Shown here: piece by piece, positions 2,596 through 44,058 of the stretch
Numbering within the stretch: position 1 is the first letter of the stretch
Layout: each line of letters starts with the position of its first letter
NCBI GenBank assembly: GCA_041583775.1
Contig: JBFHFF010000002.1
Location: 64,274 to 128,273, forward strand
DNA: 64,000 nucleotides
From: Candidatus Moraniibacteriota bacterium
Lineage (GTDB): Bacteria; Patescibacteriota; Minisyncoccia; Moranbacterales; DUUL01
Direction of reading: 5' to 3'
Translations under genes and position numbers: made by a program
The notes under the pieces: model-generated
The model's input: only the letters and a program-made list of their open reading frames with translations
What the model was told of the DNA's origin: nothing
The model's database searches: none

Positions 2596-3942
2596 ATGAA
2601 AATGACTTATAAAAAAATAACAGGCTTTTTATTAATATCCCTGTTAACAACACTTCCATTTCTCTTTTCTGGTTGTGGCGATAAGGGTGTTATAGTTCCT
2701 TATGAAATGCCCTTGGAAATTTGGGGTGTTTTTGATGACTCAACTGCATTTGAAAAAATAAACGACGCATACGCGAATAAAAATCCTCGCATTTCTGAAG
2801 TAGTCTATAAAAAAATATCAAGCAACCCAGTAGAATTCGAGAAAGAGCTTGTAGATGCTTTTGCAAGTGGCAACGGTCCTGATATTTTCTTTTTCAACAA
2901 CTTATGGCTCAAAAAACATGAAAATAAAATAGCGGCTATGCCAGAGAGTGAACTTTATTTAACAAAACACAAAAACGAATTTGTTGATGTTGTTAATCAA
3001 GATTTTTTCAGAGGAAACCAGGTATTTGCCTTGCCTCTCTATTGTGACACATTAGCACTTTATTATAACAAAAATATTCTCAACCAAGCCGGTATAACTT
3101 CTCCACCAGCAACTTGGGATGACCTCGAAAAACAAACTAAAACTCTTACTAAAATTGATAAGTTTGGAAACATCACACAGTCAGCAATAGCCCTAGGAAG
3201 ATCGAAATCTCCAGGTGCAATAAATCGCTCCTCTGATATCTTAGTACTAATGATGTTGCAAAATGGCGCTCTTCTTAACGATGTGAAAGGAATTAATTTT
3301 ACTAAATCTGACACAAAGGGAAATCCTGGATTAAGTGCCCTTGAATTTTATTCACAATTTTCTCAAGCAAATTCAAATGTTTACACTTGGAATAATAAAA
3401 TGCATTATTCTGACGATGCATTTCAAGATGGTGAAGTCGCTATGATAATCGGGTATCCTTATAAATATGCTCAGCTAAAAAAAACATCTCCCAAATTAAA
3501 CTTTGAGATTGCGCCGATGCCTCAATTGAATATTAACAATAAGATCAATTTTGCAAATTATTGGGGATTAGCTGTTGCAAAAAACAAAGACATCTCTACT
3601 GATGCAAGCTATACTAATGCAGATAGAATTACTGAATCGTGGAATTATATTTCTTATTTGACAACCAAGCCGCTTGACCCAAAGAATGACCCACTGAAAG
3701 ATTATCTTGATGCAACAAATAAGGTTTCTGCAAGAAAAGATCTCATTGAAGAGCAAAAGAATGAAACTCCACGCGGAATTTTTGCAGAACAGGCTTTGAC
3801 AGCAAAGTCTTGGATAGTGCCGGATGAAATTGCAGCTGACGAGATTATGACTGACATAATCAACGAGGTTGCAAGTGGAGAATCTACTGCCAGAGACGCA
3901 ATCGGAAGAGCAACTGCCAGATTTGAAGCGATTTGGAAATAG
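2596..3942 (+). CDS. Extracellular solute-binding lipoprotein (ABC transporter SBP family 1, sugar-type)
   Basis: Signal peptide with lipobox LFSGC. MalE-like SBP_bac_1 segments (NGPDIFFF, ALPLYCDTLALYYNKN, TWDDL). Confidence 0.55.
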   Translation: MKMTYKKITGFLLISLLTTLPFLFSGCGDKGVIVPYEMPLEIWGVFDDSTAFEKINDAYANKNPRISEVVYKKISSNPVEFEKELVDAFASGNGPDIFFFNNLWLKKHENKIAAMPESELYLTKHKNEFVDVVNQDFFRGNQVFALPLYCDTLALYYNKNILNQAGITSPPATWDDLEKQTKTLTKIDKFGNITQSAIALGRSKSPGAINRSSDILVLMMLQNGALLNDVKGINFTKSDTKGNPGLSALEFYSQFSQANSNVYTWNNKMHYSDDAFQDGEVAMIIGYPYKYAQLKKTSPKLNFEIAPMPQLNINNKINFANYWGLAVAKNKDISTDASYTNADRITESWNYISYLTTKPLDPKNDPLKDYLDATNKVSARKDLIEEQKNETPRGIFAEQALTAKSWIVPDEIAADEIMTDIINEVASGESTARDAIGRATARFEAIWK

Positions 3943-4003
3943 AAAATTCAAAAGAAAAATTTACAAAAAATATTAATTCTTTATAACTGCTATTAATAAA
4001 AAA

Positions 4004-4636
4004 ATGAAATTAATTTTCTCAGCCATCTTTTTACTGATTCTTTTTTGCGCCCCATTTTCATTGAATTATGAAAAATTACAAATCAATTCGGCATCGGCTG
4101 GTCCCAACCTAACTCACGACTATCAAAATCCTTTGAGAGTAAATAGTTTCACTAATTGGTTTGAGAATTTGTTAGTTAGTATCCAAGGAATTGTAGGATG
4201 GCTTGCAGTTATTATGATTATGGTTGGTGGAATAGTTTATATGACATCAGGTGGTTCACAAACGCAAGCATCAAGAGGTAAAGCTATAATAATAACTTCT
4301 CTTATTGGATTTGCAGTTGCTGTTGCAGCCCCATCTCTTTTAAGAGAAATAAGAGATCTTGCTGCTGCTGGAGCTGGCGGAGGATCTCCAAGCGTAATAG
4401 CCAGTGCAAAAACCATTCAAGAAATCGTTACTGATGTAATGAATTTTCTATTAGCTCTTATAGGAGTTCTTGCTCTTATTAGTTTTGTGTATGGAGGCTT
4501 TACTTATATAACTTCCGATGGGGATCAAGCCAAGGCAGATAAAGGAAAATCTGTAGTAACCTATTCTATTATAGCAGTTTGTGTAGCTGGTGCTTCCTTA
4601 ATTATTCTAAGGCAAGTGTTGTTAATCCTAGGTTAA
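4004..4636 (+). CDS. VirB2/TrbC-like (CPR T4SS-pilin-like) small membrane protein with two tandem pilin modules
   Basis: N-terminal signal. Two copies of hydrophobic helix - YMTSGG/YITSDG - K/A-rich loop (QASRGK / KADKGK) - second hydrophobic helix. Confidence 0.5.
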   Translation: MKLIFSAIFLLILFCAPFSLNYEKLQINSASAGPNLTHDYQNPLRVNSFTNWFENLLVSIQGIVGWLAVIMIMVGGIVYMTSGGSQTQASRGKAIIITSLIGFAVAVAAPSLLREIRDLAAAGAGGGSPSVIASAKTIQEIVTDVMNFLLALIGVLALISFVYGGFTYITSDGDQAKADKGKSVVTYSIIAVCVAGASLIILRQVLLILG

Positions 4637-4660
4637 ACCTTGTTATAAATAAACCATCTT

Positions 4661-6271
4661 TTGATGAAAAAGATATTTTCAAAAATCTCCTCCAAAACAA
4701 ACGAGGACAAACTTTTTACATTTGCAAATTTTTTATTCTGGCTAACAATTTTCATCACTTTTTTTGTTCTGGGAATTTCCAATCTTGACCCCGATCTTCC
4801 TTGGCACCTAAAAGTTGGTCAAGACATCTTGCAAAGTGGTCAAATTCCCACTATTGAACAGTATGTTTTTCCAACTTTCGGCGAACATTGGGTTGATCAT
4901 GAATGGCTGAGTAATTTGTTGTTATTTTTAATATACAATCTTTTCGGTAAATTTGGTTATTGGTTTTTAGGTTTCTTCTTTGCAGCAACTGCAACTTTGA
5001 CGCTTATTTTAATCTCAGAAACAACTAAAAAATATTTTCTTCCTAAATTTTATAATTGGGATTTCTTTTTTCTCAATTCATCGTTTACAATCCTTGGAAT
5101 TTTCGCACTATTCCGTTCATATGGAATAAGGCTTCAAGTTATTACTTGGCTTTTTTTTGTATTGTGTTTTATTTTTTACTTAAAAATTTCCAAAGAAAAG
5201 AAGTGGCAGTACCTAATTATTTATCCATTTTTTTTCTGTCTCTGGGCAAATATGCATGGAACATTTGTTTTGGGACTTGCAATTTCTTTATTTCTTTTAG
5301 CACTTCTTTTTTGGCAAAATAAAAATAATTCTATTCGCATAAAAATTATTTTTTCAGCCCTCGCTACAATACTTGCAACATTTTTAACACCATATAATTT
5401 TGAACTTTGGAAACTAATCGCTGGCGAATATACTCAAAACACTTCCTATCTTATTAGAATTTTTGAATGGTTACCTTTATATGCAGCTCCTTTCATCGAA
5501 TGGTATTCTACTTTTTACATTTCAATTATAATTTTCGTTATCTTGCTTTCTATAGTTCTAAAAAAGATTCCGAGAAAAATAAATGTATTTTTATACTATG
5601 GATTTATTTGTTTTATTTTATTTTTATCTATTAAGGCTCGTCGTTTCATCCCCATGTTTGTTTTGTGTTCAATTCCCTTGGCAATCTTTATTGTTGCACA
5701 AATTTTTAAGGAAAAAATTATTAAAAAATGGTTTGGTTTTTTAGTAATCCTAATTGCAGTCCCAATTATTGCTTATAAGATATTTTTCATTACCACTGTA
5801 CCTCTTGATTTATTAACTCAAAACACCCCTTTATCTCCATATAATGCTATGCTTTTTCTAAAAAACAATGCCTCTCTTGCTCAACACAATATCTATAACA
5901 AATACGGTTGGGGTGGTTATTTGGTTTTTATGTGGCCAGAAAAATTACATTTTATTGATGGCCGAATGCCACAAAAACCACTTTCCGATGGGACATCTTT
6001 TATAGACGAATATTTTAAATTTAGAGAAAGCGAAATTATATCGAAAGAAAAATTGGCGCAATATGATATCCAAGTTGTTTTAATCGAAAAAGAATATCGG
6101 ATCAAAGAAATGTTTTCTCCTTTTGAAACTTTTGCTCTAGAAAAACTTTTTTCGATTAATCTTGAAGAGTTTGATGAACCAGATTATTTAAGAGAGTATT
6201 TGGAAAAAAACTGGAAAAAAGTTTATACTGATGAAATTAGCATAGTGTACACAAGTCCAGAAATAGAATAA
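4661..6271 (+). CDS. Large polytopic membrane protein (about 12-14 TM helices plus C-terminal soluble domain); possibly a glycosyltransferase-like (PMT/ArnT-type) membrane enzyme
   Basis: 536 aa with many hydrophobic segments and a hydrophilic C-terminal 140 aa. No catalytic motif confidently recognised. Confidence 0.35.
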   Translation: MMKKIFSKISSKTNEDKLFTFANFLFWLTIFITFFVLGISNLDPDLPWHLKVGQDILQSGQIPTIEQYVFPTFGEHWVDHEWLSNLLLFLIYNLFGKFGYWFLGFFFAATATLTLILISETTKKYFLPKFYNWDFFFLNSSFTILGIFALFRSYGIRLQVITWLFFVLCFIFYLKISKEKKWQYLIIYPFFFCLWANMHGTFVLGLAISLFLLALLFWQNKNNSIRIKIIFSALATILATFLTPYNFELWKLIAGEYTQNTSYLIRIFEWLPLYAAPFIEWYSTFYISIIIFVILLSIVLKKIPRKINVFLYYGFICFILFLSIKARRFIPMFVLCSIPLAIFIVAQIFKEKIIKKWFGFLVILIAVPIIAYKIFFITTVPLDLLTQNTPLSPYNAMLFLKNNASLAQHNIYNKYGWGGYLVFMWPEKLHFIDGRMPQKPLSDGTSFIDEYFKFRESEIISKEKLAQYDIQVVLIEKEYRIKEMFSPFETFALEKLFSINLEEFDEPDYLREYLEKNWKKVYTDEISIVYTSPEIE

Positions 6272-6344
6272 TCCAATTCATTTTCACAAATTTAAAAATT
6301 TGTGCTATACTAAAAATGAAAATAACTTTTAGTTAAAATAAAAA

Positions 6345-6977
6345 GTGAAAAAGAAAAAGTTTTTAATATACATAGCCTTTGTTATGATGCTTTTTTTGTT
6401 TTTCGGTTTTAATAATGTTTTAGCTACTACCTATAGCTCCGCTAGTGACCCAGGGGGCTTTAACAATCCAATTGGCGTTTCAGATGATATTACTGCTTTC
6501 TTTGAAGCAGTAATGGTTCACTTACAAGGAATCATTGCCTTTGTAGCTGTTATGTTTATTATTATTGGTGGAATTTTATATATGTCATCTGGAGGAAATC
6601 AAGCAATGGCAACTGCTGGAAAAATTTGTATTACTAGTGCGATTATTGGATTTGCTTTAGCTGCTGCCGGACCTTCGTTTTTATATCAAATAAAGTTTTC
6701 TGTTTATGGTGATGTAAATGCTGCCGTTCCTACAAGCATTAATGCGGCACCAACTGTCATCCAGATAGTTGAACGAGTCACAACATTCCTCTTGTCAATC
6801 GTTGGTATTATTGGTATAATTGGGTTAACAATTAGTGGTTTATTATATTTATTTGCAGCAGGAGATAGTTCCCAATCACAAAAAGCAAAGGAGGCTATTA
6901 AGTATTCTATCGGCGGGATTGTAGTGGCTGGGGCTGCTTTAATAATAATAAGACAGATAGTGCTTTTTTTCACATAA
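6345..6977 (+). CDS. VirB2/TrbC-like pilin-family protein with two tandem modules (paralog of 4004-4636)
   Basis: Signal peptide. Repeated helix-YMSSGGNQAMATAGK-helix and helix-AAGDSSQSQKAKEAIKYSIGGIVVAGA. Confidence 0.5.
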   Translation: MKKKKFLIYIAFVMMLFLFFGFNNVLATTYSSASDPGGFNNPIGVSDDITAFFEAVMVHLQGIIAFVAVMFIIIGGILYMSSGGNQAMATAGKICITSAIIGFALAAAGPSFLYQIKFSVYGDVNAAVPTSINAAPTVIQIVERVTTFLLSIVGIIGIIGLTISGLLYLFAAGDSSQSQKAKEAIKYSIGGIVVAGAALIIIRQIVLFFT

Positions 6978-7051
6978 AAGCCAAAAAGAAACAAAAAGAC
7001 ATATATATTATAGTTTAATAAAAAAATTAATCTAGAAAGGCGGGTGATAAA

Positions 7052-7423
7052 ATGAAATTAACAAAAAAACATGTTTTAGCATTTAGTGTGGCATTGGCAG
7101 TAATGGTTCTTCCATTAGTTGCTAGCGCTGGAGGTTTCCAAGTGACTCGAAATATGGGGACTACTGGACTAACAAACACTAGTGTTGCAAGGATTATTTT
7201 CACCGTTTTACAATGGTTGCTTCTAATCTTAACATTCTTAGCTGTTATGGGTTTTGTAATCTCTGGTATTATGTACATCACAGCTGGAGGATCCGATCGA
7301 GCTGATCAAGCAAGACAATGGCTTACTTATTCAATCATTGGTATCATCGTTGCTCTTTTAGGTTATGTTATGACAACCTTTATTAGCACAATTATTACTG
7401 GAACTGTTCAATTGCAGACTTGA
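7052..7423 (+). CDS. VirB2/TrbC-like mini-pilin
   Basis: Signal peptide, then helix - ITAGGSDRADQARQWLTYSIIGIIVALLGY - helix. Confidence 0.55.
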   Translation: MKLTKKHVLAFSVALAVMVLPLVASAGGFQVTRNMGTTGLTNTSVARIIFTVLQWLLLILTFLAVMGFVISGIMYITAGGSDRADQARQWLTYSIIGIIVALLGYVMTTFISTIITGTVQLQT

Positions 7424-7448
7424 TTCTGAAATTGACATTCAAATAAAA

Positions 7449-7484
7449 AATAACAAGTTTTTAAAAACTTGTTATTTTTTATTT
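7449..7484 (+). terminator. Rho-independent terminator
   Basis: ATAACAAGTTTTT/AAAAACTTGTTAT perfect hairpin followed by a T-run. Confidence 0.65.
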
Positions 7485-7520
7485 GTCTTGATATAATATT
7501 ATTAGATATATAGCCAAAAA

Positions 7521-7892
7521 ATGAAAATAAAAATGAAGAAAGGAGCTATAAAATTATTTACAAAATTCTCTTTATTGAATTTGTTTTTTATTCCAGTCCT
7601 TTCATTTGCTCAATTTGTTGTTGAAGAGGAAAGAGAAACTCCCTCAAAATTTGCACAACAAGGCCTGGAAACACTAAACAACACAGTTGCTGCCATTAAT
7701 GTTTTTTTGGGGCTTCTTTTTCTTTTTTCAATTATCGGACTTTTAATTGCTGGTGTTCGTTTTGTGATTGCAGGAGGAAGTGAAGAGATGTTGAATTCTG
7801 CTAGAACAATCTCTATGGCATCTGTTATGGGGATAATTTTTTCCCTTATTGGTTACATCCTTGTTAATTCCATTAAACATTTTGTTATTTAA
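7521..7892 (+). CDS. VirB2/TrbC-like mini-pilin
   Basis: Signal peptide. VIAGGSEEMLNSARTISMASVMGIIFSLIGY motif between two hydrophobic helices. Confidence 0.5.
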   Translation: MKIKMKKGAIKLFTKFSLLNLFFIPVLSFAQFVVEEERETPSKFAQQGLETLNNTVAAINVFLGLLFLFSIIGLLIAGVRFVIAGGSEEMLNSARTISMASVMGIIFSLIGYILVNSIKHFVI

Positions 7893-7893
7893 A

Positions 7894-8283
7894 ATGAAAA
7901 AAAATACAAAAAGAATTCTTGCAGTGTTGGTTTGTTTTTTGCCTTTTCTTATATTCTTTTTACAAACGATGCCAGCATCAGCATCATGGGGGGTTGGTTT
8001 GAATCTTGCAAGAGACAATTCAAACCTACCAGAAAACAGAGCAGAGAGCGTTATCTTTACCTTCCTGAACTGGCTTTTACTTATTTTCACACTCATTAGT
8101 GTAATTGCTTTTGTGATTGCCGGAATGATGTTTTTGACATCAGGAGGGAATACCCAACAGGCAGAAAAAGCAAAAAACTATGTCACTTATGCAATCATTG
8201 GTATCGCTGTTAGTTTGTCAGGGTATGTTATTATATCGTTTATTGCATCAACAATGGGTGGCACAGTTCAAACACAATACTAG
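7894..8283 (+). CDS. VirB2/TrbC-like mini-pilin; start moved to the internal ATG (MKKNTKRIL) to avoid overlap with the upstream gene
   Basis: Signal peptide. LTSGGNTQQAEKAKNYVTYAIIGIAVSLSGY. Confidence 0.5.
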   Translation: MKKNTKRILAVLVCFLPFLIFFLQTMPASASWGVGLNLARDNSNLPENRAESVIFTFLNWLLLIFTLISVIAFVIAGMMFLTSGGNTQQAEKAKNYVTYAIIGIAVSLSGYVIISFIASTMGGTVQTQY

Positions 8284-8311
8284 ATTATTTTATTTCTTCA
8301 AATATAAAAAT

Positions 8312-8689
8312 ATGTTAAAAAAAGTTTTCACCTTCACTTTTACCCTTACTGTTATTTTGGGAATTTGGTTTTTCATATCTCCCGCACAAGAAGTATTTGC
8401 AACTGGAATAACGATTCCAACAGGAACTGGTTTACCTGATCCATCAGATACAACGGGACAAGGACCAGTTGTTCAGGTTGCTGTTAATGTTATGCGCTGG
8501 ATATTAGCAATTTTCACACTTTTGGCTGTTATAGCTTTTGTTTATACAGGTTTTAAATATCTCACAACCATGGGGGATACCTACAAAGCAGAATCTGCAA
8601 AAAATTCATTAGTATATTCGATTATCGGAGTTGCGGTAACGGCCGGAGCTTTAATTTTGATCAATACGGTCGATGTTCTTTTGAGATAA
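8312..8689 (+). CDS. VirB2/TrbC-like mini-pilin; start at internal ATG (MLKKVFTF)
   Basis: Signal peptide. YLTTMGDTYKAESAKNSLVYSIIGVAVTAGAL. Confidence 0.45.
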   Translation: MLKKVFTFTFTLTVILGIWFFISPAQEVFATGITIPTGTGLPDPSDTTGQGPVVQVAVNVMRWILAIFTLLAVIAFVYTGFKYLTTMGDTYKAESAKNSLVYSIIGVAVTAGALILINTVDVLLR

Positions 8690-8710: not shown

Positions 8711-8750
8711 AATAAAAAGGCCTGTCATCCATTTTGGACAACAGGCCTTT
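8711..8750. terminator. Bidirectional Rho-independent terminator between convergent genes
   Basis: AGGCCTGT...ACAGGCCT 8-bp stem, flanked by an A-run on the left (T-run on the minus strand) and TTT on the right. Confidence 0.55.
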
Positions 8751-11003: not shown

Positions 11004-12383
11004 ATGCTCAACAAAATTAAAGGCTCTTTTCGTGATCCAAGCGGATTTTTATTCTATAAAAAAGGGGTTTTGTATCGAAATATAGATAAGTCATACGAAG
11101 AAAACTACAAAAAACTCGTCTCTTCTGGTCTTTTGGCAGAGCTTTGGAATAAAGATCTTCTCATCAAACATCGAGAAGTTGAAACTCAAAAAAGTGATTT
11201 CTCATCTTTCAAGACAATCCAACCAGAAAAGCTCCCTTTCATTTCATATCCCTATGAATGGTGTTTTTCTGAACTCAAAGATGCTGCACTTTTGACCCTA
11301 GAGATACAAAAAATAGCCCTCTCTTATGGGATGAACCTGAAAGATGCAAGCGCTTTTAATGTGCAGTTTAAAAACGGAAAACCAATTTTCATTGACACAC
11401 TTTCTTTTGAAATACACAACAAAAACACTCCTTGGGTCGCATATAAACAATTTTGCCAGCATTTTCTCGCTCCCTTGGCATTGATGAAATATCAAGATTT
11501 GCGTTTAAATATTCTTTTCCGAACCTTTCTCGATGGCGTTCCCTTGGATCTTGCAAGTTCACTTTTGCCCAAAAAATCACTTTTAAACTTCTCTTTTTTG
11601 ACACATATCCATCTACATGCAAAAACGCAAAAACACTATGCAAACAAACCAGAAAGAGGTCAATTGAGAAAAAGTCCGAAGATGAACAAAGACGCTCTTC
11701 TAGCGTTAATTTCAAGCCTAGAAAGTGCCATTAAAAGGATTCTGATAAAAGAAATCGACACTGAATGGGGGAATTATTACAACTCAACAAACTATTCCGA
11801 ATCTTCTTTTCTGAAAAAAAGAGAAGTTATTGAAGAATTTCTTAGAAAATCAGGGAAAATTAAAAATGTTTGGGATTTAGGAGGAAATACTGGTGTTTTC
11901 AGTAGAATTGCTTCAAATAAAGATATTAAAACAATTTCCTTTGATATTGACCCTCTTGCAGTTGAGAAAAACTATCTTTTAACTAAAAAAAACCAAGAAT
12001 CAAACATTTTTCCTTTGGTTATGGATCTAACCAATCCAAGTCCCGGTCTTGGTTGGGCTCATTCAGAAAGATACTCCCTGCAAGCAAGAGCAAATTCCGA
12101 TTTAATTATGGCACTTGCAATTATCCATCACCTTTGTATTTCTAACAATCTTCCCTTTTTGAATATTGCTGAATATTTCAGTAAATTAGCAAAAAACTTA
12201 ATCATTGAGTTTGTTCCAAAATCAGATTCAAATGTAAAAAGATTGCTTGCAACCAGAGAAGATATTTTCAAAAAATATGACGAAAAACACTTTGAAGAAG
12301 CTTTTCTAAAGTTCTATCAAATCAAAGAAAAAAGGAAAATACAAGATTCTGAGAGAATTTTATACTTAATGGAAACCTTTTGA
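11004..12383 (+). CDS. Class I SAM-dependent methyltransferase with an N-terminal domain of unknown function
   Basis: Motif I VWDLGGNTGVFS and motif post-I FDIDP in the C-terminal half. The stop overlaps the next start (ATGA). Confidence 0.5.
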   Translation: MLNKIKGSFRDPSGFLFYKKGVLYRNIDKSYEENYKKLVSSGLLAELWNKDLLIKHREVETQKSDFSSFKTIQPEKLPFISYPYEWCFSELKDAALLTLEIQKIALSYGMNLKDASAFNVQFKNGKPIFIDTLSFEIHNKNTPWVAYKQFCQHFLAPLALMKYQDLRLNILFRTFLDGVPLDLASSLLPKKSLLNFSFLTHIHLHAKTQKHYANKPERGQLRKSPKMNKDALLALISSLESAIKRILIKEIDTEWGNYYNSTNYSESSFLKKREVIEEFLRKSGKIKNVWDLGGNTGVFSRIASNKDIKTISFDIDPLAVEKNYLLTKKNQESNIFPLVMDLTNPSPGLGWAHSERYSLQARANSDLIMALAIIHHLCISNNLPFLNIAEYFSKLAKNLIIEFVPKSDSNVKRLLATREDIFKKYDEKHFEEAFLKFYQIKEKRKIQDSERILYLMETF

Positions 12384-13951
12384 AAATAAACACGACAACA
12401 AAAAAGAAACGAAAAGTGGTTTTAATTTTACACCCTTATCTATTCGCCCTATTTTCTGTTTTATCATTATACAGCTATAACAAAGACCTGGTTAATCCCT
12501 CTTATGCTTTTTGGCCGACAATAATGGTCTTGTTTTTCGCTCTCTTTACACACCTTTTAGTGAAATATTTCGTTAAAGACAGAGATAAAGCAGCGCTATT
12601 AACTTCAATTTTTCTATTCACATTCCTATCCTTTGGACATTATGTCGAACTACCCTTTTTGCTTTTTCAAGAAATGCCTATAGAAAATTTAAATTATTAT
12701 ATAATACTAATAGGCTGGATTATTTTTCTTACGGTTACTGCTAATCAAATCATAAAAACAAAAAAACAATTTTCAAAAATCACTTTTTATCTAAATGCTG
12801 TTTCTGTCATTTTGGTTTTGATTTCCTTTTTTAATATTACTTTTTATGAAATTAAAACTAAAAATGTTACTGAGTTAATTGAAAAAAGCAACAATATTGG
12901 CCAATCAGCTTCCACTGAAAAACATCCTGATATTTATTATATCATTTTAGATGGCTTTGCTAGACAAGATATTCTAAAAGAAATATACCATGCCGATGAT
13001 AGTGTTTTCGTTTCCTCCCTGGAAAATCTTGGCTTTTTCGTTGCAAGTCAAAGTACTTCCAATTATCCCCAAACTTATCTGTCAGTTTCTTCAGCACTTA
13101 ATTTGAAATATCTTGATGATGTTGCATTAACTGTGGGTGAAGAATCTCAAGACCGTGGGCCTTTAAGAAAAATAATAAAAGACAATCAAGTTTATCAGAC
13201 ATTAAAAGAAAAGGGATATTCATTTGTATCTTTCCCATATACTTGGACTGGAACGGCCGACAATCAACACACTGATATCTATATGCAAGATCAAATTGGC
13301 TTTGGAGAATTTGGTGATTTATTCTTAAATCTCACACCTCTTTCAATTTTTCTTCAAAAAAATCTTCAATTTGAACAACATCGAAATAAAATCCTACATG
13401 TATTCGAAAAAATGCCAGATGTTGCAAAAATAGAGAAACCAACCTTTACTTATACTCATATCTTAGCACCACACCCACCTTTTGTCTTTAAATCAGACGG
13501 TGGTCCAACTGAGATGACTGGTAAAATGTATGGAAATGATGGAAGTCATTATTTCGAACTTCATCCAAATAAAGAGGAATACAGAAAATTATACGCAGAA
13601 CAACTCTCATTTATAGCAAAAAAAACTCTAGCAATGACGAAAGAAATCATTGAAAATTCCAAAGAAGAGCCTGTTATTATAATCCAATCAGACCATGGTC
13701 CAGGATCAATGTTAGAGTGGGAAGATGAAGAGAAAACAAATCTTCCAGAGCGCTTTTCAATCCTCAATGCCTATTACCTTCCAAGCGACAAAAATACAAA
13801 ACTTTATGAAACAATCACGCCAGTAAACTCCTTTCGTGTTGTCTTCAACAACATTTTTGACGCCAACTTAGAGCTCCTTCCTGATAGAAATTATTTTGCT
13901 CGTTGGAACACGCCTTACGCCCACATTGATATAACTGAAAAGTTGCAGTGA
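12380..13951 (+). CDS. Membrane-anchored sulfatase-family protein (LtaS / phosphoglycerol- or phosphoethanolamine-transferase-like)
   Basis: About 5 N-terminal TM helices. Alkaline-phosphatase-superfamily motifs YYIILDGF, IIIQSDHGPG. Confidence 0.6.
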   Translation: MKINTTTKKKRKVVLILHPYLFALFSVLSLYSYNKDLVNPSYAFWPTIMVLFFALFTHLLVKYFVKDRDKAALLTSIFLFTFLSFGHYVELPFLLFQEMPIENLNYYIILIGWIIFLTVTANQIIKTKKQFSKITFYLNAVSVILVLISFFNITFYEIKTKNVTELIEKSNNIGQSASTEKHPDIYYIILDGFARQDILKEIYHADDSVFVSSLENLGFFVASQSTSNYPQTYLSVSSALNLKYLDDVALTVGEESQDRGPLRKIIKDNQVYQTLKEKGYSFVSFPYTWTGTADNQHTDIYMQDQIGFGEFGDLFLNLTPLSIFLQKNLQFEQHRNKILHVFEKMPDVAKIEKPTFTYTHILAPHPPFVFKSDGGPTEMTGKMYGNDGSHYFELHPNKEEYRKLYAEQLSFIAKKTLAMTKEIIENSKEEPVIIIQSDHGPGSMLEWEDEEKTNLPERFSILNAYYLPSDKNTKLYETITPVNSFRVVFNNIFDANLELLPDRNYFARWNTPYAHIDITEKLQ

Positions 13952-33250: not shown

Positions 33251-34711
33251 CTAACTTCTCTTAATTGAATATAATGCATTTATATCACGTTTTTTTGTGG
33301 TATTTTTTTCCAAAACATCCATTAGACAAAATTTGTTAAGATATCCTCTTATGACTTTATCACTTTTAGATAGGCTAATACTCAACTGTCCAACTGTGGC
33401 ACCATTGCTCGCCAAAATATACGACAATATTTCTATTTCTGTTTCATTCAAGTGTTTCCACATCGATTCAACCTTTTTCATCACAATCTCTGGGATAGCT
33501 TTTTCGTGATCTGCTATCTTATTCCTAAGTATAAGAGTAACTGTATTGTTTCTATCATAATATTTTGGCTCTGCCAACATTGATTTTTCCATCGATTCAA
33601 AAATACGAGAAACTCCTTCATTTAATTCTCGTACAAGTCCCAAATCCGACAACACTCGTGCTACTCTTGGATTCCTAGAAAATCTCTCTTCTCTTATGTT
33701 TTCAACTGTAACCTGAGCTGGCAAAGGTCCACTATTGGATATTTCCAAACGATCATCAAAATGTTTTATATAGATACAATTTCCTTGAACATTATACGAA
33801 CGATGGCAAAGAGCATTAACCAACCCCTCAAGCCACGCTTCTTCTGGATATTCAGAAATCTTTACAAATCGTCCCTTCTCTACATCTAAATAATAATAAT
33901 CTCTTAATGAGGCATAGATAAATTTCTGGAGATCCCTTGCAAGAAGTGGAATACATCCCTCAAAACGTTCGTCTTTGATAACGTTGTGATCCACTCCTGT
34001 CTTTGCCACCACTCCATCATAACGTATGTATCTAGCGCACGATGACGGAATATACTTATCGGGATTTTTTGCAAAAAGAAGAACGGCTGAGTTTTTATAA
34101 ACCACCTCATTTCCGTCTCTGATAGCTAGGTTCCTACTGAGAAGAAGTTCCTTGTAATCACCCTCAAATTTAAGCTGCTTCTTATAAAATTCTAGGGTTT
34201 TTTCTTCAAAATCATTAGTGTCAAAGTCTTTCCTAGGTTCATCTTCAAAGCTTCTTATTTCTCTGTCATATTCCAATTTACGGACCTCTTCTCTGGTCAA
34301 TGGACCTTTGTTTGAGTCTCCTATCCTTATATAAACATCTTCATTATCTTTTCTGCAAAATACTCTTTCGTAATCCTGTTCTATGTGATAAATAAATAGC
34401 AACTCACCAGAATCCAAAATTACTTCCTCAAGCTCTACATTCGCTGGAGGAGCTATAAAATCAAAACAAATTTTACGATACCGATCGATTAAATTAGTAT
34501 TCATTGTTTTTAAATCTTGAACACCATCTTGTTCAGAAACACCCACTACTATAATCCCGCCGTCAGCATTAAGCATTCCAATTATCTCATTAGCAAGCTT
34601 TGTGGGTTTCAATCCAGATTCCTCAATCCCTTTTCTCTCGAAATACTGTCCTTCTACTTTTTCTATTAGATACTCTACAGTTATTCTTTTATCTATTTTA
34701 GAAATACTCAT
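33251..34711 (-). CDS. Schlafen/AlbA_2 domain plus HATPase_c_4 plus C-terminal wHTH protein (so-called RecG-like putative regulator/ATPase)
   Basis: KLANEIIGMLNADGGIIVVGVSEQDG (AlbA_2). ALCHRSYNVQGNCIYIKHFDDRLEISNSGPLP (HATPase_c_4). Confidence 0.7.
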   Translation of the reverse strand: MSISKIDKRITVEYLIEKVEGQYFERKGIEESGLKPTKLANEIIGMLNADGGIIVVGVSEQDGVQDLKTMNTNLIDRYRKICFDFIAPPANVELEEVILDSGELLFIYHIEQDYERVFCRKDNEDVYIRIGDSNKGPLTREEVRKLEYDREIRSFEDEPRKDFDTNDFEEKTLEFYKKQLKFEGDYKELLLSRNLAIRDGNEVVYKNSAVLLFAKNPDKYIPSSCARYIRYDGVVAKTGVDHNVIKDERFEGCIPLLARDLQKFIYASLRDYYYLDVEKGRFVKISEYPEEAWLEGLVNALCHRSYNVQGNCIYIKHFDDRLEISNSGPLPAQVTVENIREERFSRNPRVARVLSDLGLVRELNEGVSRIFESMEKSMLAEPKYYDRNNTVTLILRNKIADHEKAIPEIVMKKVESMWKHLNETEIEILSYILASNGATVGQLSISLSKSDKVIRGYLNKFCLMDVLEKNTTKKRDINALYSIKRS

Positions 34712-36935: not shown

Positions 36936-39900
36936 TTATTTTTCAAATTCAAGTTTTCTTAGTTTAATTCCCTCTTCCTCTTTCTTCCTTTGTTCATCTG
37001 CCATTTCGTTTAAATTTTCAATCATTTTTATGGCAAATCTGCTAACCCTATCTTCGGCTGAATCCAGATATTTTTCTAAAGAACTGGCTTTATTTCTTAA
37101 GCTATCAGAAAAACCATACTCACCAGAAACTACGCCAGTTTTATGCATAAGAGAAGCAACCCTGTTTAAAATCTTTTCATCATCAGTTCTCTTAACAATT
37201 TCAAAACAAATTTCAAATGATGGAACGCTAACCGTTCTTAAAATATCAACCGCATTTGCCAAACTTTTAGCATCCCCTTTTTCGATAATATTTTTCAATA
37301 CTTTATCAAAAGATTTATCTATTTTTTCTATAAACTGCCCTAACTCCCAATTATATATGCTCCACTCCTTTGTCATCTTCTCTGACCATTTTCCGATATA
37401 ATTAATATATTCGTCATTTTTACTTATATATTCGGCAAGATTCTCATTAAAATTAAACGGAATAGCTTCATAATGATGCAGTCCTAATCGCTTCTTTGGT
37501 TTCTCTTTTTGTGCCCTTTTTATCCTATTTAGAATAAGCTCCATAATTGAGTCGAAATTCTTTTTTTCCATATTAAGAAGAAGTTCTTGGGCGTCACAAT
37601 TAAAATCTTCTATTTCGACCAACTTACTCAAAATATACTTTTTAGTTTCTGTCCTAAACTTTGAACAATCAATTGATTCTCTAATCTCCATATGGTGCAA
37701 CTCTCGTATAAAAAAACCTGGCATTAATGGGTTTTTTTCGATTTCAGAAATAAACAATTTTTCAATCACCTTAGGGTTCTTTGCGTGAATGCTTGAGAGG
37801 CCTTGCATTAAAGAGGAATGAAAGGCAAATTCATTGACACCCTTCCTTCTCAAAAAACTAAATGTTCTGTCTTTATTTATAGACCTTTGAAATAATTCTA
37901 TGTCTTTTCTTCTTACACCTTTTTTTATCCCCTTTTTATTAATATACAAAAACGAAAGATAGGCATCAAAAAGCTGTTCTGCGGATTTGTTTTTTATAAT
38001 TATGTCTACATATTTGTCCCAAAGTTGAAGGTTATCTTCTTTTCTAAATCCATATAAAAATTGTCCCACAAATTTGAACAGTGGTTTTTTATTTTTAACC
38101 GCATCGTCCAAAATAATTTCGGCTATTTCTGGTTTTTTCTCAGCTAATCGCTGAAGCAAAGAGTTAAATCCTTGAAGTTTCCAACTCTCTTCTTCAACTC
38201 CATATTGCGCCATATCATTCAATATTATTTTCCATTTTTCAACACTTTTCAAGTTTATTTTAGACAAACAAGATGAAATGGTGTCATTCCTTCTCTTTTC
38301 ATATGCTTCGTATTTCTTTTCTTCCTTGTAAACAATGTCACCGATTAGAACCCTATACAATCCATAAAACTCATCTGAACGTATTTTACTTAATATTTTT
38401 TTTATTTTTTCTTCGTTTTCAGTGCCGAGTTTGTCTATCCAGATTAATTTTTCTTCTATTTCCAAAACGATTGGTGATTCAGCTTTAATATTGTCCTGCT
38501 TACCAAAAATGATATCCTCATAAAAATCCATAACGTATTCGAGTTCTTCATAAATGAATTTTCTTCCTTTCTCATCTATATTAGAATGAAAACGAGAAAT
38601 GTTTTCAAGTGTTTCAAGAAGACTAATTTTAGATTTCACATCAACAACCCGCCCGTATAGATTTTTTATTAAATCAATTGCTTCTCTTCGTATCTTTCTC
38701 AATTCTTCACTCGGAACGAGTGGTCCAGAAATCAATGATATGGTGTTCCAATCTCTCATCTCCTGTAACTCATAAGAAAACTCTAGAATTTTACCAAGCG
38801 CTTTGTTTATTATTTTCAAATTCCTTATTTGCTTAGCATTGTCCCATACTAAAATCGTAGCAATTAAATCTTTTTGATACTTATAAAGAAAAGCTACTGA
38901 ATTTTTTCTTTGTCTCAATACCTGATATTTTGAAAAGTTTTTCACAGCATCTAGAATTTTTTTCTCACTTAATCCCATTTCTTCGTATTCGCAAAACTCC
39001 ACGAGAAGATTAAAGGCATTTATAAAATCAGCATTTTTGATTTTGTTAATAATATCTATGCATTTTTCAGCAATATTTATCAAAGTTTTTCCTGGTATTT
39101 CACCTAATATACTTGATTCATTTTTCTTCTTGTTTGTTTTGACTTTATTCATACAGTCCCTTAATAAATCGACTATTTCTTCATTGCCATATCTACCGAT
39201 ATTTACCTCCTCGGTATACTTCTCCAATAACAACAATTCTTGGTAAATTTTATTGTTGTTTTGGGACCTTATATGTTCAGGATTGAATATTGCACGGCCT
39301 TTTTCAAGTTCACCGTACAAATAGGAGATGTTTTCAAACTCAAAACTTGCTTCATTAATGTGCCTTATCATTATATCTTTAAATCTCTCATCCAATATTT
39401 CGAATTCTTTTGGGTATCTCTTTTTCACTTCCTGTGTAGGTTTGTATATAATGTCGTGTTCTAGTTCGGACCAAGCGTGAAACAATGGTGTTGTTAATTG
39501 TATTTCACATTTTAGACCCTTAAATTTTGAATATTCCAATAATCTTAATCTTTCTTCATTAAGACCATTAACAACCAAGTGGATTGCCTTGTAACCATCG
39601 TGCTTTAACTTTCTTTTTATTTTTACATTTAGCAACTCCTTCTCTACTAATTTAGAAAACTTATCAGCTTCACTTTCCAAGTAAAAAATTATTCGTACCC
39701 CAGCCAAATCATCAATATCTGAAAATTTCTTTATACTCTTTTCAATATAATAGACTGAACTTCCTTCTGGTCGCTTTAACTTTTCTTTTAGCTTATATTT
39801 TTCTTTTACTCTATAAGTTATAACTTGAATTTTTGATTTAAGCTTTTTTTCTTCAATTATTTTTTCAATTATCGTTTTTATTGCCAAAGCAAAACTCTCA

Positions 39901-39974
39901 TACAACTTTATTTTTTCATCGTTGTATTCAATCATTATTTGATTCACCCTGTCGTCTGCTTTACGTTTTTTCAT
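36936..39974 (-). CDS. RelA/SpoT-family nucleotide pyrophosphokinase (small-alarmone-synthetase-like) N-terminal domain fused to about 800 aa of uncharacterised alpha-helical region
   Basis: All synthetase-domain motifs are present in the first 200 aa: YRVKEKYKLKEKLKR, DDLAGVRIIFY, GYKAIHLVV, CEIQLTTPLFHAWSELEHDIIYK. There is no HD hydrolase, TGS or ACT domain. Confidence 0.75.
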   Translation of the reverse strand: MKKRKADDRVNQIMIEYNDEKIKLYESFALAIKTIIEKIIEEKKLKSKIQVITYRVKEKYKLKEKLKRPEGSSVYYIEKSIKKFSDIDDLAGVRIIFYLESEADKFSKLVEKELLNVKIKRKLKHDGYKAIHLVVNGLNEERLRLLEYSKFKGLKCEIQLTTPLFHAWSELEHDIIYKPTQEVKKRYPKEFEILDERFKDIMIRHINEASFEFENISYLYGELEKGRAIFNPEHIRSQNNNKIYQELLLLEKYTEEVNIGRYGNEEIVDLLRDCMNKVKTNKKKNESSILGEIPGKTLINIAEKCIDIINKIKNADFINAFNLLVEFCEYEEMGLSEKKILDAVKNFSKYQVLRQRKNSVAFLYKYQKDLIATILVWDNAKQIRNLKIINKALGKILEFSYELQEMRDWNTISLISGPLVPSEELRKIRREAIDLIKNLYGRVVDVKSKISLLETLENISRFHSNIDEKGRKFIYEELEYVMDFYEDIIFGKQDNIKAESPIVLEIEEKLIWIDKLGTENEEKIKKILSKIRSDEFYGLYRVLIGDIVYKEEKKYEAYEKRRNDTISSCLSKINLKSVEKWKIILNDMAQYGVEEESWKLQGFNSLLQRLAEKKPEIAEIILDDAVKNKKPLFKFVGQFLYGFRKEDNLQLWDKYVDIIIKNKSAEQLFDAYLSFLYINKKGIKKGVRRKDIELFQRSINKDRTFSFLRRKGVNEFAFHSSLMQGLSSIHAKNPKVIEKLFISEIEKNPLMPGFFIRELHHMEIRESIDCSKFRTETKKYILSKLVEIEDFNCDAQELLLNMEKKNFDSIMELILNRIKRAQKEKPKKRLGLHHYEAIPFNFNENLAEYISKNDEYINYIGKWSEKMTKEWSIYNWELGQFIEKIDKSFDKVLKNIIEKGDAKSLANAVDILRTVSVPSFEICFEIVKRTDDEKILNRVASLMHKTGVVSGEYGFSDSLRNKASSLEKYLDSAEDRVSRFAIKMIENLNEMADEQRKKEEEGIKLRKLEFEK

Positions 39975-42654: not shown

Positions 42655-43473
42655 ATGCAGTCTGCAATCAAATCATTAAAAAGAAGATTCGAAGTTATAA
42701 ATAGCTCCAATGGTAAGAAAACTTTTATTCCAGCCTTGTTTCAGTATTTAAAATTTGCGACCAACAATAAAAAAATTTCACAAATACTAAAAGAATTGGA
42801 GAAAAAGAGGAACAACGAGCTCAAAAAGCTCAATCTTCGGCAACTTCCCTTTTTAGAAGAAACAGAAATTTGGCCCCATTGGGGAAAAATAGAACCAGCC
42901 TTATTATTATCTGGCAAATCATACCACAAGGCTAGTGAAACCTTTTTGGAAGAGAAAAGGAACGATTCAGTCCTTGACTTTCTTCACTTTAGAGCAGGAA
43001 ATAACTCTTTTAATGGAGCGCCTACAAATGAACAACTTGCAAATCTTATGGTAAGTATAAAAATTGTTCACAACTTTTTACTTGATGAACTTGAAAAGGT
43101 TGAGCCAGAAAAAACATTAGTAACGGAAAAAAACGGGGATTTTTATTATAATAACTTTCTGATAAATTTTGGTGAGGGAACACAATATAAAGAGCTTTTT
43201 AAAATAATTTATACCGAATGCAGCAATAGCAAAGAAAGTTTTATATCCTATAAAAAAATAAGCTTATTATTAGACAAAAGAACTAATACAAACGGACCGA
43301 TCAAAAAAACTGACAGGCAATCTTCACAAAAAAAAATCCAAAACTTAATAAGAAACGGCATCTTTAGAACTGGCAAATTAGCAAATAAGAGTAACTTAGA
43401 AAATATAACCCCTTCTGGAAAAAAACTAATTGAGATAATCCGAGGGAAAGGAATCAAATTGAATCAAGGATAA
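42655..43473 (+). CDS. Hypothetical protein
   Basis: 272 aa; no motif. Confidence 0.45.
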   Translation: MQSAIKSLKRRFEVINSSNGKKTFIPALFQYLKFATNNKKISQILKELEKKRNNELKKLNLRQLPFLEETEIWPHWGKIEPALLLSGKSYHKASETFLEEKRNDSVLDFLHFRAGNNSFNGAPTNEQLANLMVSIKIVHNFLLDELEKVEPEKTLVTEKNGDFYYNNFLINFGEGTQYKELFKIIYTECSNSKESFISYKKISLLLDKRTNTNGPIKKTDRQSSQKKIQNLIRNGIFRTGKLANKSNLENITPSGKKLIEIIRGKGIKLNQG

Positions 43474-43499
43474 ACATATTCAGCTTAGAAAAGTTTCTC

Positions 43500-43528
43500 A
43501 AAAGACCCTAAATGGGGTCTTTTTTGTT
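43500..43528 (+). terminator. Rho-independent terminator
   Basis: AAGACCC-taaat-GGGGTCTT followed by T6. Confidence 0.6.
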
Positions 43529-43626
43529 TATTCTAAGCGACTCTAGCATTTTAAGCCAAATAAGTTTTTCCAAGTAATTGTCCTTTAAGAAATAATTACT
43601 ATAGATAAACATTAAAACACTAAACA

Positions 43627-43863
43627 ATGAAAGACAAAGAAAGGGTTTATACTTCTGATTTTTTGACAGCAACAATTTTTTTGTACTTCAAAGAAGAGTT
43701 AAAGGAACTTAATAAAAAAGACCCTAGTAGAATTATTTTTTGTTTTCTTAAAAATGAAACCACTGATAAAACATTAGAGTTACTTCATAAAGGTAAATTA
43801 AAGGTCGAACCAAAAAAATTAGCTTATATTCAAAGAAGTCTAAAAAATAGGATGTTTAGCTAA
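43627..43863 (+). CDS. Small hypothetical protein
   Basis: 78 aa. Confidence 0.35.
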   Translation: MKDKERVYTSDFLTATIFLYFKEELKELNKKDPSRIIFCFLKNETTDKTLELLHKGKLKVEPKKLAYIQRSLKNRMFS

Positions 43864-43881
43864 CATCAATATTATCTTAAT

Positions 43882-44052: not shown

Positions 44053-44058
44053 CATCCT

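Follow-up and report, generated by a model that had tools for sequence, protein, structure and literature searches.

A VirB2/TrbC-like pilin array with an embedded GT-C-fold glycosyltransferase gene in a Moranbacteria-related Patescibacterium

Introduction

Arrays of VirB2-like pilin genes in Patescibacteria, some of them interrupted by a non-pilin gene, were already reported in 2023 and 2025. The published arrays, 441 in 383 assemblies in one survey, comprise 2-11 genes that stand in tandem or are split by a non-pilin gene, with identities of 25% on average and 54% at most, and the same pilin Pfam family was found near virB4 in 1,135 assemblies (PMC12102498). In S. epibionticum, an essential six-pilin array lies inside a T4SS cluster (PMC10633639; PMC12857230). 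T4SSs of monoderm bacteria normally come without pili (PMC12102498; PMC12857230). Two glycosylation systems are also relevant to the locus described here. In group IV strains of P. aeruginosa, the GT-C glycosyltransferase TfpW is encoded beside the type IV pilin gene (bioRxiv 10.1101/2020.04.19.049825), and the three-component CsbB/GtcA/YfhO system decorates lipoteichoic or wall teichoic acid (PMC5836110).

The array analyzed here is located in a 64-kb stretch of DNA, referred to as the window. What it adds to the known arrays is the identity of the embedded protein as a GT-C, the linkage of this protein with pilins and a fixed set of paralogs; neither this linkage nor such a fixed set was found described in the literature searched.

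Results

Layout of the locus

Positions 2596-8689 of the window can, with better than even confidence, be read as a single operon-like unit from a Patescibacterium related to Moranbacteria. Its products are an orphan substrate-binding (SBP) lipoprotein, six VirB2/TrbC-like pilin proteins (p1 to p6) and, after p1, a GT-C-fold glycosyltransferase, with gaps of 1-97 bp between the genes.

2475-2517, both strands: palindromic hairpin with a 19-bp stem, terminator-like site after gyrA
2596-3942, plus strand: SBP lipoprotein (SBP_bac_1, Pfam PF01547 at 5.3e-21; lipobox LFSGC), first gene of the unit
4004-4636, plus strand: p1, double-module pilin, 210 aa (PF18895 at 3.9e-19, two stretches)
4664-6271, plus strand: GT-C-fold glycosyltransferase, 535 aa from ATG 4664 (a TTG start at 4661 is also possible)
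6345-6977, plus strand: p2, second double-module pilin, 210 aa (PF18895 at 4.6e-17, two stretches)
7052-7423, plus strand: p3, single-module pilin, 123 aa (PF18895, 31.6 bits)
7521-7892, plus strand: p4, divergent single-module paralog, 123 aa (PF18895, 13.6 bits; BLASTP matches to p3 and p5)
7894-8283, plus strand: p5, single-module pilin, 129 aa from ATG 7894 (PF18895, 28.9 bits)
8312-8689, plus strand: p6, single-module pilin, 125 aa from ATG 8312 (PF18895, 34.3 bits), last gene of the unit
8716-8750: hairpin with a 16-bp stem, terminator-like site between p6 and a convergent minus-strand gene

The first hairpin is likely a bidirectional terminator at the upstream edge of the unit, and the second likely a terminator that closes it. 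All six same-strand genes for a signal peptide followed by a helical hairpin, which the original prediction had placed at 4004-8689, were recovered together with the polytopic protein between them (535 or 536 aa, depending on the start), and a search with a module HMM gave no additional pilin ORF in the 64-kb window. The mechanical ORFs of p5 and p6 (from 7849 and 8180) are overextended, and the two ATG starts listed above yield proper signal peptides; that of p5 lies 1 nt past the p4 stop. For p2, the GTG start at 6345 gives a signal peptide with a KKKK n-region, and gene callers chose ATG 6384 on identical contigs. No ABC permease is encoded near the SBP lipoprotein, which is a conserved partner of the pilins among relatives and whose orthologs (34-36% identity) adjoin a lone pilin in loci of the divergent type.

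Pilin modules

The proposed VirB2/TrbC-like membership agrees with the Pfam profiles, as five of the six proteins exceed the gathering score of PF18895 (T4SS_pilin), p1 with 68.9 and p2 with 62.3 bits and p3, p5 and p6 with the scores listed above. The sub-threshold p4 is a clear paralog according to BLASTP (7.5e-9 to p3, 9e-8 to p5). In the Pfam scan, no pilin of the window reached the TrbC/VirB2 profile PF04956; in an alignment of 37 double-module sequences (p1 and p2 with the p1 homologs), all match PF18895 and four also match PF04956 (best E 9e-10).

Six genes encode eight modules, since p1 and p2 are each a tandem fusion. These pairs are recognized by Pfam and by the module HMM and, for p1, in an AlphaFold model, where a signal peptide and a disordered exposed segment precede two helical hairpins at residues 49-122 and 138-209 (helices 49-80/86-122 and 138-169/175-209) that are connected by a linker roughly 15 residues long (123-137). 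A Foldseek search with this model matched no solved pilin structure. Homologs of p1 fall into about 60 clusters of 200-240 aa. Identities between modules range from 13 to 45%, with 43% for p1a and p2a, 36% for p1b and p2b and 40% for p5 and p3. The (A/S)GG...(A/S)K motif described for all paralogs is a real loop motif but looser than stated, reading [S/T/A]-[G/D/M]-G, 6-8 residues and [A/G]-[K/R], and its sole invariant position is the final basic residue.

Conservation of the paralogs

In relatives, each of the eight modules is matched by a 1:1 ortholog that occupies the same place in the array, and this holds down to a GT-C identity of only 38%; module-by-module score matrices are diagonal against the loci L008, L003 and L010. 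The pilins are 70-87% identical to their L008 orthologs (GT-C 72%, SBP 81%) and 47-75% to those of L003 (GT-C 46%, SBP 53%). The most conserved pilin of the set is p3 (87% and 75%, respectively), and positional orthologs of p4 are present in all relatives compared. Exposed N-terminal segments are conserved among orthologs and differ between paralogs. Among 48 fully flanked loci, 29 carry 7 pilin ORFs and another 8 carry 8; in L086 the array has expanded, specifically in that lineage, to nine genes, four of them g2-like. The 1:1 orthology, an ortholog conservation matching that of the neighbouring genes and the conserved exposed segments together indicate that paralog divergence is old and fixed, not ongoing.

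The embedded GT-C protein

The product of 4664-6271 confidently models as a GT-C-fold glycosyltransferase (AF2, pLDDT 93, pTM 0.92), and the original guess thus proved right at the level of the fold. All 19 Foldseek PDB hits at E <= 1e-3 are GT-C enzymes, the nearest solved folds being STT3, PglB, AglB, DPY19 and ArnT, and no sequence match was obtained in Pfam, NCBIfam or PDB. The predicted topology comprises 11 TM helices with the N-terminus inside and the C-terminus outside, an external C-terminal domain of about 160 aa and a D42-x-D44 motif in the first external loop. Judged by topology and charge distribution, all family-invariant residues lie on external loops or in the external C-terminal domain. 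Exposed pilin segments are not enriched in N-x-S/T sequons (134 observed, 116 expected).

Linkage of GT-C, pilin and GT2 genes

A pilin gene is found at most 400 bp from the GT-C gene in 38 of the 48 fully flanked loci, and at least three lie within 4.5 kb in 39, adjacency counts that stem largely from one broadly syntenic clade and thus from non-independent loci. Pilin ORFs number 345 in 585 kb near GT-C genes and 20 in 555 kb farther off. The linkage is seen in at least two architectures, one with GT-C embedded on the pilin strand and one divergent, and persists across GT-C proteins that are only 30-38% identical. In the divergent-type loci, where synteny extends over some 20 kb, adjacency is weak evidence of coupling. 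In 46 of 61 loci, GT-C is followed downstream by a GT2 gene for a polyprenyl-phosphate-sugar-synthase-like product that resembles AglJ, ArnC or Dol-P-hexose synthases. It is a tighter GT-C partner than the pilins, because pilin adjacency was lost in at least four clades in which GT2 is mostly retained. L007 carries GT-C, GT2 and a GtrA-family protein and no pilins. In the window's clade, GT-C retained its pilin neighbours and lost the GT2 neighbour, with no GT2 encoded within 10 kb.

T4SS genes

A Pfam scan of the 45 larger ORFs detected no VirB4, VirB6, VirD4 or other T4SS gene in the 64-kb window, as had been noted from the letters alone. In L003, L005 and L006, no such gene was called up to 10 kb from the arrays, and none was found among ten recurrent neighbour ORFs sampled with Pfam, so that T4SS dependence is deduced from the family name and the literature. 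Machinery could plausibly lie elsewhere in the genome; in part of a published Table S1, 15 Moranbacteria genomes are listed and 13 of them scored VirB4-positive.

Discussion

We lean towards reading the unit as the form that the known VirB2-like pilin array of Patescibacteria T4SSs takes in this lineage. The pilins would be exported via Sec, cleaved by signal peptidase I at an AxA-type site and held in the membrane as helical hairpins with both termini outward and the short basic loop in the cytoplasm, and tandem fusion of modules would be topologically allowed. They may be the subunits from which VirB4-type machinery, encoded in another part of the genome, would build a filament or envelope conduit associated with a T4SS. 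As all eight modules are kept as 1:1 positional orthologs at ordinary rates, they probably make up a fixed heteromeric set whose parts are not redundant, with major plus minor or specialised subunits, and not a repertoire for variation. GT-C most likely would move a sugar from a polyprenyl-phosphate carrier, charged in relatives by the adjacent GT2, onto an extracytoplasmic acceptor. Because its gene recurs next to or within pilin arrays, the exposed segments of the pilins are the foremost candidate for this acceptor; glycosylation of the pilins is a tentative proposal, held at somewhat less than an even chance.

It is conceivable, and a minority possibility of some weight, that GT-C instead belongs to a three-component envelope glycosylation system (GT2, flippase and GT-C) of the CsbB/GtcA/YfhO kind, with a polymer of the cell wall or surface proteins other than the pilins as target and a pilin neighbourhood inherited by synteny. 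Beside the described precedent, this would account for GT2 as the most constant neighbour, also in pilin-less clades, for the gene set of L007 and for the 20-kb synteny that weakens the divergent-type adjacency, and it fits two LtaS/sulfatase-family membrane proteins encoded in the window (12380-13951 and 59749-62241). However, the window's clade has a same-strand GT-C inside a pilin operon that lacks a nearby GT2, the linkage spans two architectures and strongly diverged GT-Cs, the protein has no YfhO or PMT_2 match in Pfam and its top fold matches (STT3, DPY19, PglB, AglB) are protein-modifying enzymes. Less probable, and in our view unlikely, is a T4SS-independent membrane hetero-oligomer of PF18895 proteins, for example an envelope or uptake platform with the orphan SBP lipoprotein and the glycosylation genes. 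The arrays of the window's clade and of the divergent-type loci adjoin no T4SS gene and consistently adjoin the permease-less lipoprotein, pili are normally missing from monoderm T4SSs and, to our knowledge, none has been observed in any Patescibacterium; yet the same family occurs within the essential S. epibionticum cluster and near virB4 in many assemblies, close homologs match TrbC/VirB2, and VirB4 is present in most Moranbacteria genomes in the part of Table S1 mentioned above.

The original prediction took paralog divergence as a sign of a diversifying surface appendage, for antigenic variation or host attachment. Such a repertoire, known from the VirB2 paralogs of Bartonella and Anaplasma and also floated for Patescibacteria (PMC12102498), would be in line with the low identity between paralogs, their differing exposed segments and the L086 expansion. 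The positional orthology of all eight modules, a pilin conservation equal to or above that of GT-C and SBP, exposed segments that are conserved among orthologs and a nearly fixed gene number argue against it, and from these sequence comparisons antigenic variation appears unsupported and quite improbable. An assembly artefact or a collapsed or expanded repeat, which near-identical copies would have suggested, has a negligible probability, because the modules are only 13-45% identical; identical gene order, found in other samples and species on independent contigs, refutes it as well, and no point in its favour was found.

Comparison with known systems

The arrays of S. epibionticum ML1 (SEML1_0006-0019) and N. 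lyticus TM7x share with the window PF18895 and about six sequence-divergent, structurally similar tandem pilins, and published Patescibacteria arrays sometimes have a non-pilin interruption and show comparable identity levels (PMC12102498). In contrast to these, the window array lies outside any T4SS cluster, holds two tandem-fused double pilins, is interrupted by a gene identified as GT-C and has the SBP lipoprotein as a conserved partner; whereas the published discussion leans toward variation, its paralogs show fixed positional orthology. The PF04956 TrbC/VirB2/TraA pilins of diderm T4SSs likewise combine a signal peptide, two hydrophobic helices and a short basic loop, and a minority of close window homologs match their profile. 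The window proteins, however, fall below this profile and belong to a monoderm-like Patescibacterium with multiple fixed paralogs and fused doubles.

In the case of TfpW, the GT-C gene is also directly beside pilin genes whose products it could modify, and the window enzyme would similarly use a polyprenyl-phosphate sugar on the outward side of the membrane; the pilin class differs (type IV there, VirB2-like hairpin here) and the likeness is one of gene arrangement. Among STT3/AglB/PglB enzymes, the best structural matches are 8age_A (E 3e-7, TM 0.63), PglB and AglB, and the C-terminal domain resembles the globular domain of AglB-S2 (3vu0, TM 0.57). Common features are two motifs, an acidic D-x-D on external loop 1 and an I-x-E on the long loop, also external, before the last four TM helices. 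Unlike these enzymes, the window GT-C has no STT3 Pfam match, 11 predicted TM helices instead of 13 and, in place of WWDYG, an invariant YGWGGY as nearest motif, assigned by inferred position rather than superposition; its GT2 partner points to a single sugar linked through a monophosphate, and the pilins lack sequon enrichment. With CsbB/GtcA/YfhO (PMC5836110) the locus family shares a GT2 beside GT-C and, in L007, a GtrA-family protein. It differs from that system in the missing YfhO match, in the GT2-free locus of the window's clade and in its recurrent neighbours, which are pilin arrays rather than teichoic-acid genes.

The eight-gene unit and its pilins

The pilin genes lie in a unit of eight same-strand genes, spaced by 1-97 bp and enclosed by two hairpins:

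2475-2517, palindromic hairpin after gyrA, upstream edge of the eight-gene unit
2596-3942 (+), SBP_bac_1 lipoprotein (SBP), 448 aa, lipobox LFSGC
4004-4636 (+), pilin gene p1 (modules p1a and p1b), 210 aa
4664-6271 (+), polytopic membrane protein (GT-C), 535 aa
6345-6977 (+), pilin gene p2 (modules p2a and p2b), 210 aa
7052-7423 (+), pilin gene p3, 123 aa
7521-7892 (+), pilin gene p4, 123 aa
7894-8283 (+), pilin gene p5, 129 aa
8312-8689 (+), pilin gene p6, 125 aa
8716-8750, second hairpin before a convergent gene, downstream edge of the unit

For p5 and p6, the mechanical ORFs (from 7849 and 8180) are too long; internal ATGs yield canonical signal peptides and agree with the orthologs. According to the sequences and the module alignment, all six proteins share one plan, in which a signal peptide is followed by two hydrophobic helices and the short connecting loop ends in Lys/Arg.

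The array of six pilins put forward in the original prediction proved to be real. Five of the six proteins exceed the gathering score of the Pfam model PF18895 (T4SS_pilin; 26.6 bits), namely p1 (68.9 bits), p2 (62.3), p3 (31.6), p5 (28.9) and p6 (34.3), while p4 stays below it with 13.6 bits and is tied in as a paralog by BLASTP (7.5e-9 to p3 and 9e-8 to p5). The internal duplication of two members was confirmed as well: p1 and p2 contain two PF18895-matched stretches apiece, and in the AlphaFold model of p1 (pLDDT 77 overall, about 90 in the hairpins), the signal-peptide helix and a disordered stretch (20-48) are followed by two helical hairpins (49-122 and 138-209), with a linker of about 15 residues between them. 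The eight modules can be aligned end to end with a mutual identity of 13-45%; the paralogs are not near-identical, which rules out an assembly artefact. Module p1a pairs with p2a (43% identity) and p1b with p2b (36%), and the tandem fusion is therefore older than the p1/p2 duplication. A module HMM run over the 64-kb window retrieved no additional pilin copy.

In an alignment of 37 double-module sequences (p1, 35 homologs and p2), PF18895 was matched by all 37 and the TrbC/VirB2 model PF04956 by four (best E 9e-10); none of the window proteins matched PF04956 in Pfam at E ≤ 1. A Foldseek comparison of the p1 model with the PDB, for which short hairpins are ill suited, returned generic helical bundles only and no hit with E < 0.4, and a profile of the p1 alignment had zero hits among PDB sequences. 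The window proteins can therefore be assigned firmly to the pilin family of the Patescibacteria, and only indirectly to classical TrbC/VirB2. Below the threshold (E 6e-7 to 5e-4), p1, p2, p3, p5 and p6 also match NCBIfam NF045849, a model for the pilin-like conjugal transfer protein Mbov_0395 encoded by Mycoplasma ICEs, which bears on the published claim that MPF-FATA systems have no VirB2-like proteins. A flippase role for the pilin-like proteins was dropped on reasoning only, on the grounds that, once the signal peptide has been removed, two TM helices remain and that they form 6-7 fixed paralogs, unlike GtrA or ArnE/F.

Predicted fold of the embedded membrane protein

The GT-C protein between p1 and p2 matched nothing in Pfam and NCBIfam at E ≤ 1, and its family profile had zero hits among PDB sequences. 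The family is large, with 28,763 representatives at E ≤ 1e-3 in the full profile search and 5,727 representatives of 50%-identity clusters at E ≤ 1e-30. All named homologs are annotated as "hypothetical"; most names indicate Patescibacteria, and a few bins are evidently mislabelled. The nearest named relative of the window is a Ca. Moraniibacteriota MAG (GT-C 72%, GyrA 94% identical). A model built from a 50-sequence alignment reached a pLDDT of 93 and a pTM of 0.92, and all 19 Foldseek hits to the PDB at E ≤ 1e-3 were GT-C enzymes, namely yeast and human STT3 (best E 3e-7, TM 0.63), DPY19, PglB, AglB and ArnT; ALG9 and AftA come next. The C-terminal domain alone resembles the globular domain of AglB-S2. 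At the level of its predicted fold, the embedded protein is a GT-C glycosyltransferase, a candidacy raised in the original prediction.

From the helices of the model and the positive-inside rule, we infer a topology of 11 TM helices with the N-terminus inside and the C-terminus outside. All family-invariant residues would lie on the outer side, and the charge pattern supports this arrangement. An acidic motif of the catalytic type directly follows TM1, in the first external loop, with D44 invariant and D42 nearly invariant (at least 90% of sequences). Besides D44, the invariant set comprises W47, H48, H79-E80-W81, R156, Q158, H198, I266-x-E268-W269 and R327 and, in the C-terminal part, W416-G417-G418 and D432-G-R-x-P-Q; like D42, D78 (before H79) and N412 and Y414 (before W416) are nearly invariant. 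In contrast to STT3, AglB and PglB, the protein has no STT3 profile match, no WWDYG motif in the C-terminal domain and fewer TM helices and is thus not a bona fide OST; the invariant motif opening its C-terminal domain is N-x-Y-G-W-G-G, with no Asp.

Linkage of GT-C with pilins and GT2 genes

A total of 80 loci encoding the GT-C family was fetched from species-representative genomes, of which 48 were fully flanked, that is, with at least 4 kb on each side of GT-C. In this subset, a pilin ORF lies within 400 bp of GT-C in 38 loci and at least three pilin ORFs lie within 4.5 kb in 39. The density of pilin ORFs is 345 per 585 kb near GT-C versus 20 per 555 kb farther out. In part, these linkage figures reflect broad synteny inside one clade. 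Two architectures are found. The same-strand, embedded one characterizes the clade of the window (loci L001-L004, L008, L009 and L011), in which GT-C is located inside the array after p1; in the variant L010, it precedes the whole array. In the divergent architecture, seen in a large set labelled Falkowbacteria or Patescibacteria, six single pilins are transcribed divergently from GT-C. In two such loci, L005 and L006, GT-C is followed by a polyprenyl-phosphate-sugar-synthase-like gene (GT2), a small membrane protein, a methyltransferase, a RodZ-like protein, a lone pilin and the orthologous SBP, and L006 has a PMT_2 gene between GT-C and GT2.

The GT2 gene occurs within 2.5 kb downstream of GT-C in 46 of 61 loci; among the NCBIfam models it comes closest to AglJ, ArnC and Dol-P-hexose transferase, in each case below the cut-off. 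None was found among the scanned ORFs of the window or within 10 kb in the loci of its clade, where the pilins are kept beside GT-C. On a neighbour-joining tree of GT-C, pilin adjacency was lost in at least four clades, usually with retention of GT2. The linkage between GT-C and pilins thus goes far back and recurs, without being obligatory.

An SBP_bac_1 lipoprotein with no ABC permease in sight neighbours the pilins in both architectures (window 2596-3942 (+), L005 14461-15840 (-) and L006 15840-17237 (-)). The orthologs are 34-36% identical between architectures (E 1e-72 to 1e-78), and SBP may work together with the pilins. In relatives, an extra Cys-rich pilin, p0, with the motif CGRxCD...DETxxCTLCHLL, is inserted between SBP and p1 (L009 8735-9274, L003 8783-9343, L011 5314-5958 and L010 13075-13698). 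It is missing at window 3943-4003, having been lost in the window and in L008, and in the divergent-type loci L006 and L017 it is most similar to the lone pilin adjacent to SBP. Among the double-module homologs, P0139, P0173, P0174, P0175 and P0181 owe their 316-360 aa to a long additional extracellular domain at the N-terminus, which in P0139 is Cys-rich; such domains are consistent with a pilin N-terminus displayed outside.

The T4SS machinery reported to be absent from the window is indeed not encoded there, since no T4SS component (VirB4, VirB3/VirB6-like) was detected with Pfam among the 45 larger ORFs. Likewise, the gene calls of L003, L005 and L006 show no T4SS gene up to 10 kb from the arrays, and Pfam found none among ten recurrent neighbour ORFs sampled from relatives. 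In the published dataset on Patescibacteria VirB2 arrays, 1,948 assemblies have both a pilin gene and virB4, and in 1,135 of them the two lie near each other (Quinonero-Coronel et al. 2025; PMC12102498). Among 15 Moranbacteria genomes taken from Table S1, 13 are VirB4-positive. A T4SS encoded elsewhere in the genome is therefore plausible.

A fixed set of paralogs rather than a variable repertoire

The divergence of the paralogs has been explained by surface variation, both in the original prediction (antigenic or host-attachment variation) and in the literature, where antigenic or host-range variation was proposed by analogy with Bartonella and Anaplasma (PMC12102498). When the modules were compared one by one with BLAST, the matrices for the window against L008, L003 and L010 were cleanly diagonal, and so were those of divergent-type loci among themselves, save one lineage-specific expansion in L086. 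The pilins are 70-87% identical to those of L008, compared with 72% for GT-C, 81% for SBP and 94% for GyrA; for L003, the values are 47-75%, 46%, 53% and 71%, respectively. The exposed N-terminal segments are conserved inside orthogroups, and copy number is almost constant, with 7 pilin ORFs in 29 of 48 loci. Diagonal orthology, ordinary conservation and steady copy number argue for non-redundant subunits that are probably under ordinary purifying selection. The variation reading of the original prediction is not supported by this comparison, given 1:1 orthology, identities at or above those of neighbouring genes and a near-fixed copy number, and the fixed positional orthology, as judged from sequence comparison, argues against the published variation hypothesis as well. 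The only clear recent paralog turnover was observed in L086 (5501-9788 (-)), whose array has grown to nine pilins, four of them closest to orthogroup g2.

The acceptor of GT-C

The exposed segments of the pilins abound in G, T, S, A, N and D but are essentially unenriched in N-x-S/T sequons, of which a count over 278 pilins gave 134 where 116 were expected, and a shared sequon column exists in only about half of the orthologs of g1 and of g2, two pilin orthogroups. That the pilins are the acceptor can be proposed tentatively, at somewhat below an even chance. Alternatively, GT-C could modify an envelope polymer or other proteins, a reading of about the same probability. An envelope polymer would conform to the combination of GT2 and GT-C known from teichoic-acid glycosylation (PMC5836110), and LtaS-family proteins are encoded in the window. 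These LtaS/sulfatase-family membrane proteins are located at 12380-13951 (+) and 59749-62241 (-), the second being fused to a GDPD domain, and relatives carry several paralogs downstream of the array, as in L003. Together, the two proteins and the paralogs in relatives suggest a teichoic-acid-like polymer in the window organism.

With the pilins as acceptor, the genes would form a conserved surface module of the Patescibacteria, in which an unannotated, OST-like GT-C would glycosylate a fixed heteromeric set of VirB2-like pilins, fused doubles included, and would be fed in most lineages by the AglJ/ArnC-like GT2. This complete scheme is rather unlikely as it stands. If true, it would represent the first glycosylated T4SS-type pilus or conduit and, for the Candidate Phyla Radiation, a pathway devoted to protein glycosylation. 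The conserved orphan lipoprotein SBP might take part with it in uptake or in contact with the host.

Other features of the window

A 5S and a 23S rRNA gene are found at 55564-55670 and 55823-58944 (-) with no adjoining 16S; the 23S match measures 3,122 nt against a model of 2,925 positions, which suggests an insertion. The plus-strand island at 42655-48272, with reversed GC skew, looks like an integrated element. It contains a DnaG-type zinc-ribbon ORF (44059-44643), an unassigned ORF of 439 aa and a large serine recombinase (46612-48231) that overlaps tRNA-Trp (48199-48272 (-)) at its end; no att-site repeats were found for the putative element at 42.6-48.2 kb. The 439-aa ORF carries at its 3' end (45999-46034) the 9-nt unit ATGTGAACA in four tandem copies, which the repeat finder listed as three 18-nt copies that overlap. 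Elsewhere, a 1,012-aa protein (36936-39974 (-)) has an N-terminal RelA_SpoT as its sole recognisable domain, and a Schlafen/AlbA_2 plus HATPase_c_4 protein is encoded at 33251-34711 (-).

Significance and comparison with known systems

The sole genetically tractable Patescibacterium needs both the T4SS and the pilin array for its epibiotic life. Three points could make the product of the pilins, and the reason for having about six of them, more testable: the subunits appear fixed and individually conserved, against the variation hypothesis of the literature; covalently fused pairs limit the arrangements of neighbouring subunits in any polymer; and in many lineages the arrays are linked in the genome to a large unannotated GT-C family, which puts forward a concrete modification enzyme and candidate substrates.

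The series of pilins within the S. epibionticum T4SS cluster was found to be essential (Wang et al. 2023; PMC10633639); a 2025 review counts six pilins in this cluster and mentions pilus formation only as a possibility (PMC12857230). None of the three publications (PMC12102498, PMC10633639 and PMC12857230) says what the interrupting gene is, and neither fused pilins nor glycosylation come up in them; full-text literature searches combining Patescibacteria and oligosaccharyltransferases yielded nothing relevant. Tandem-fused double pilins, an embedded, broadly linked but unannotated GT-C and fixed positional orthology were not found described. The array as such is a genuine member of an already known kind. 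The published Patescibacteria arrays, found with the same Pfam model PF18895, comprise 2-11 pilin genes, in tandem or split by one non-pilin gene, with a mean mutual identity of 25% and a maximum of 54% (PMC12102498); the window fits this description with six genes, one interrupter and 13-45% identity. The fast evolution and turnover expected of VirB2 arrays that serve variation, as in Bartonella and Anaplasma, were not seen for its paralogs in the comparisons with L008, L003 and L010. For a GT-C enzyme encoded next to pilins, as here, TfpW of the P. aeruginosa type IV pili provides a precedent.
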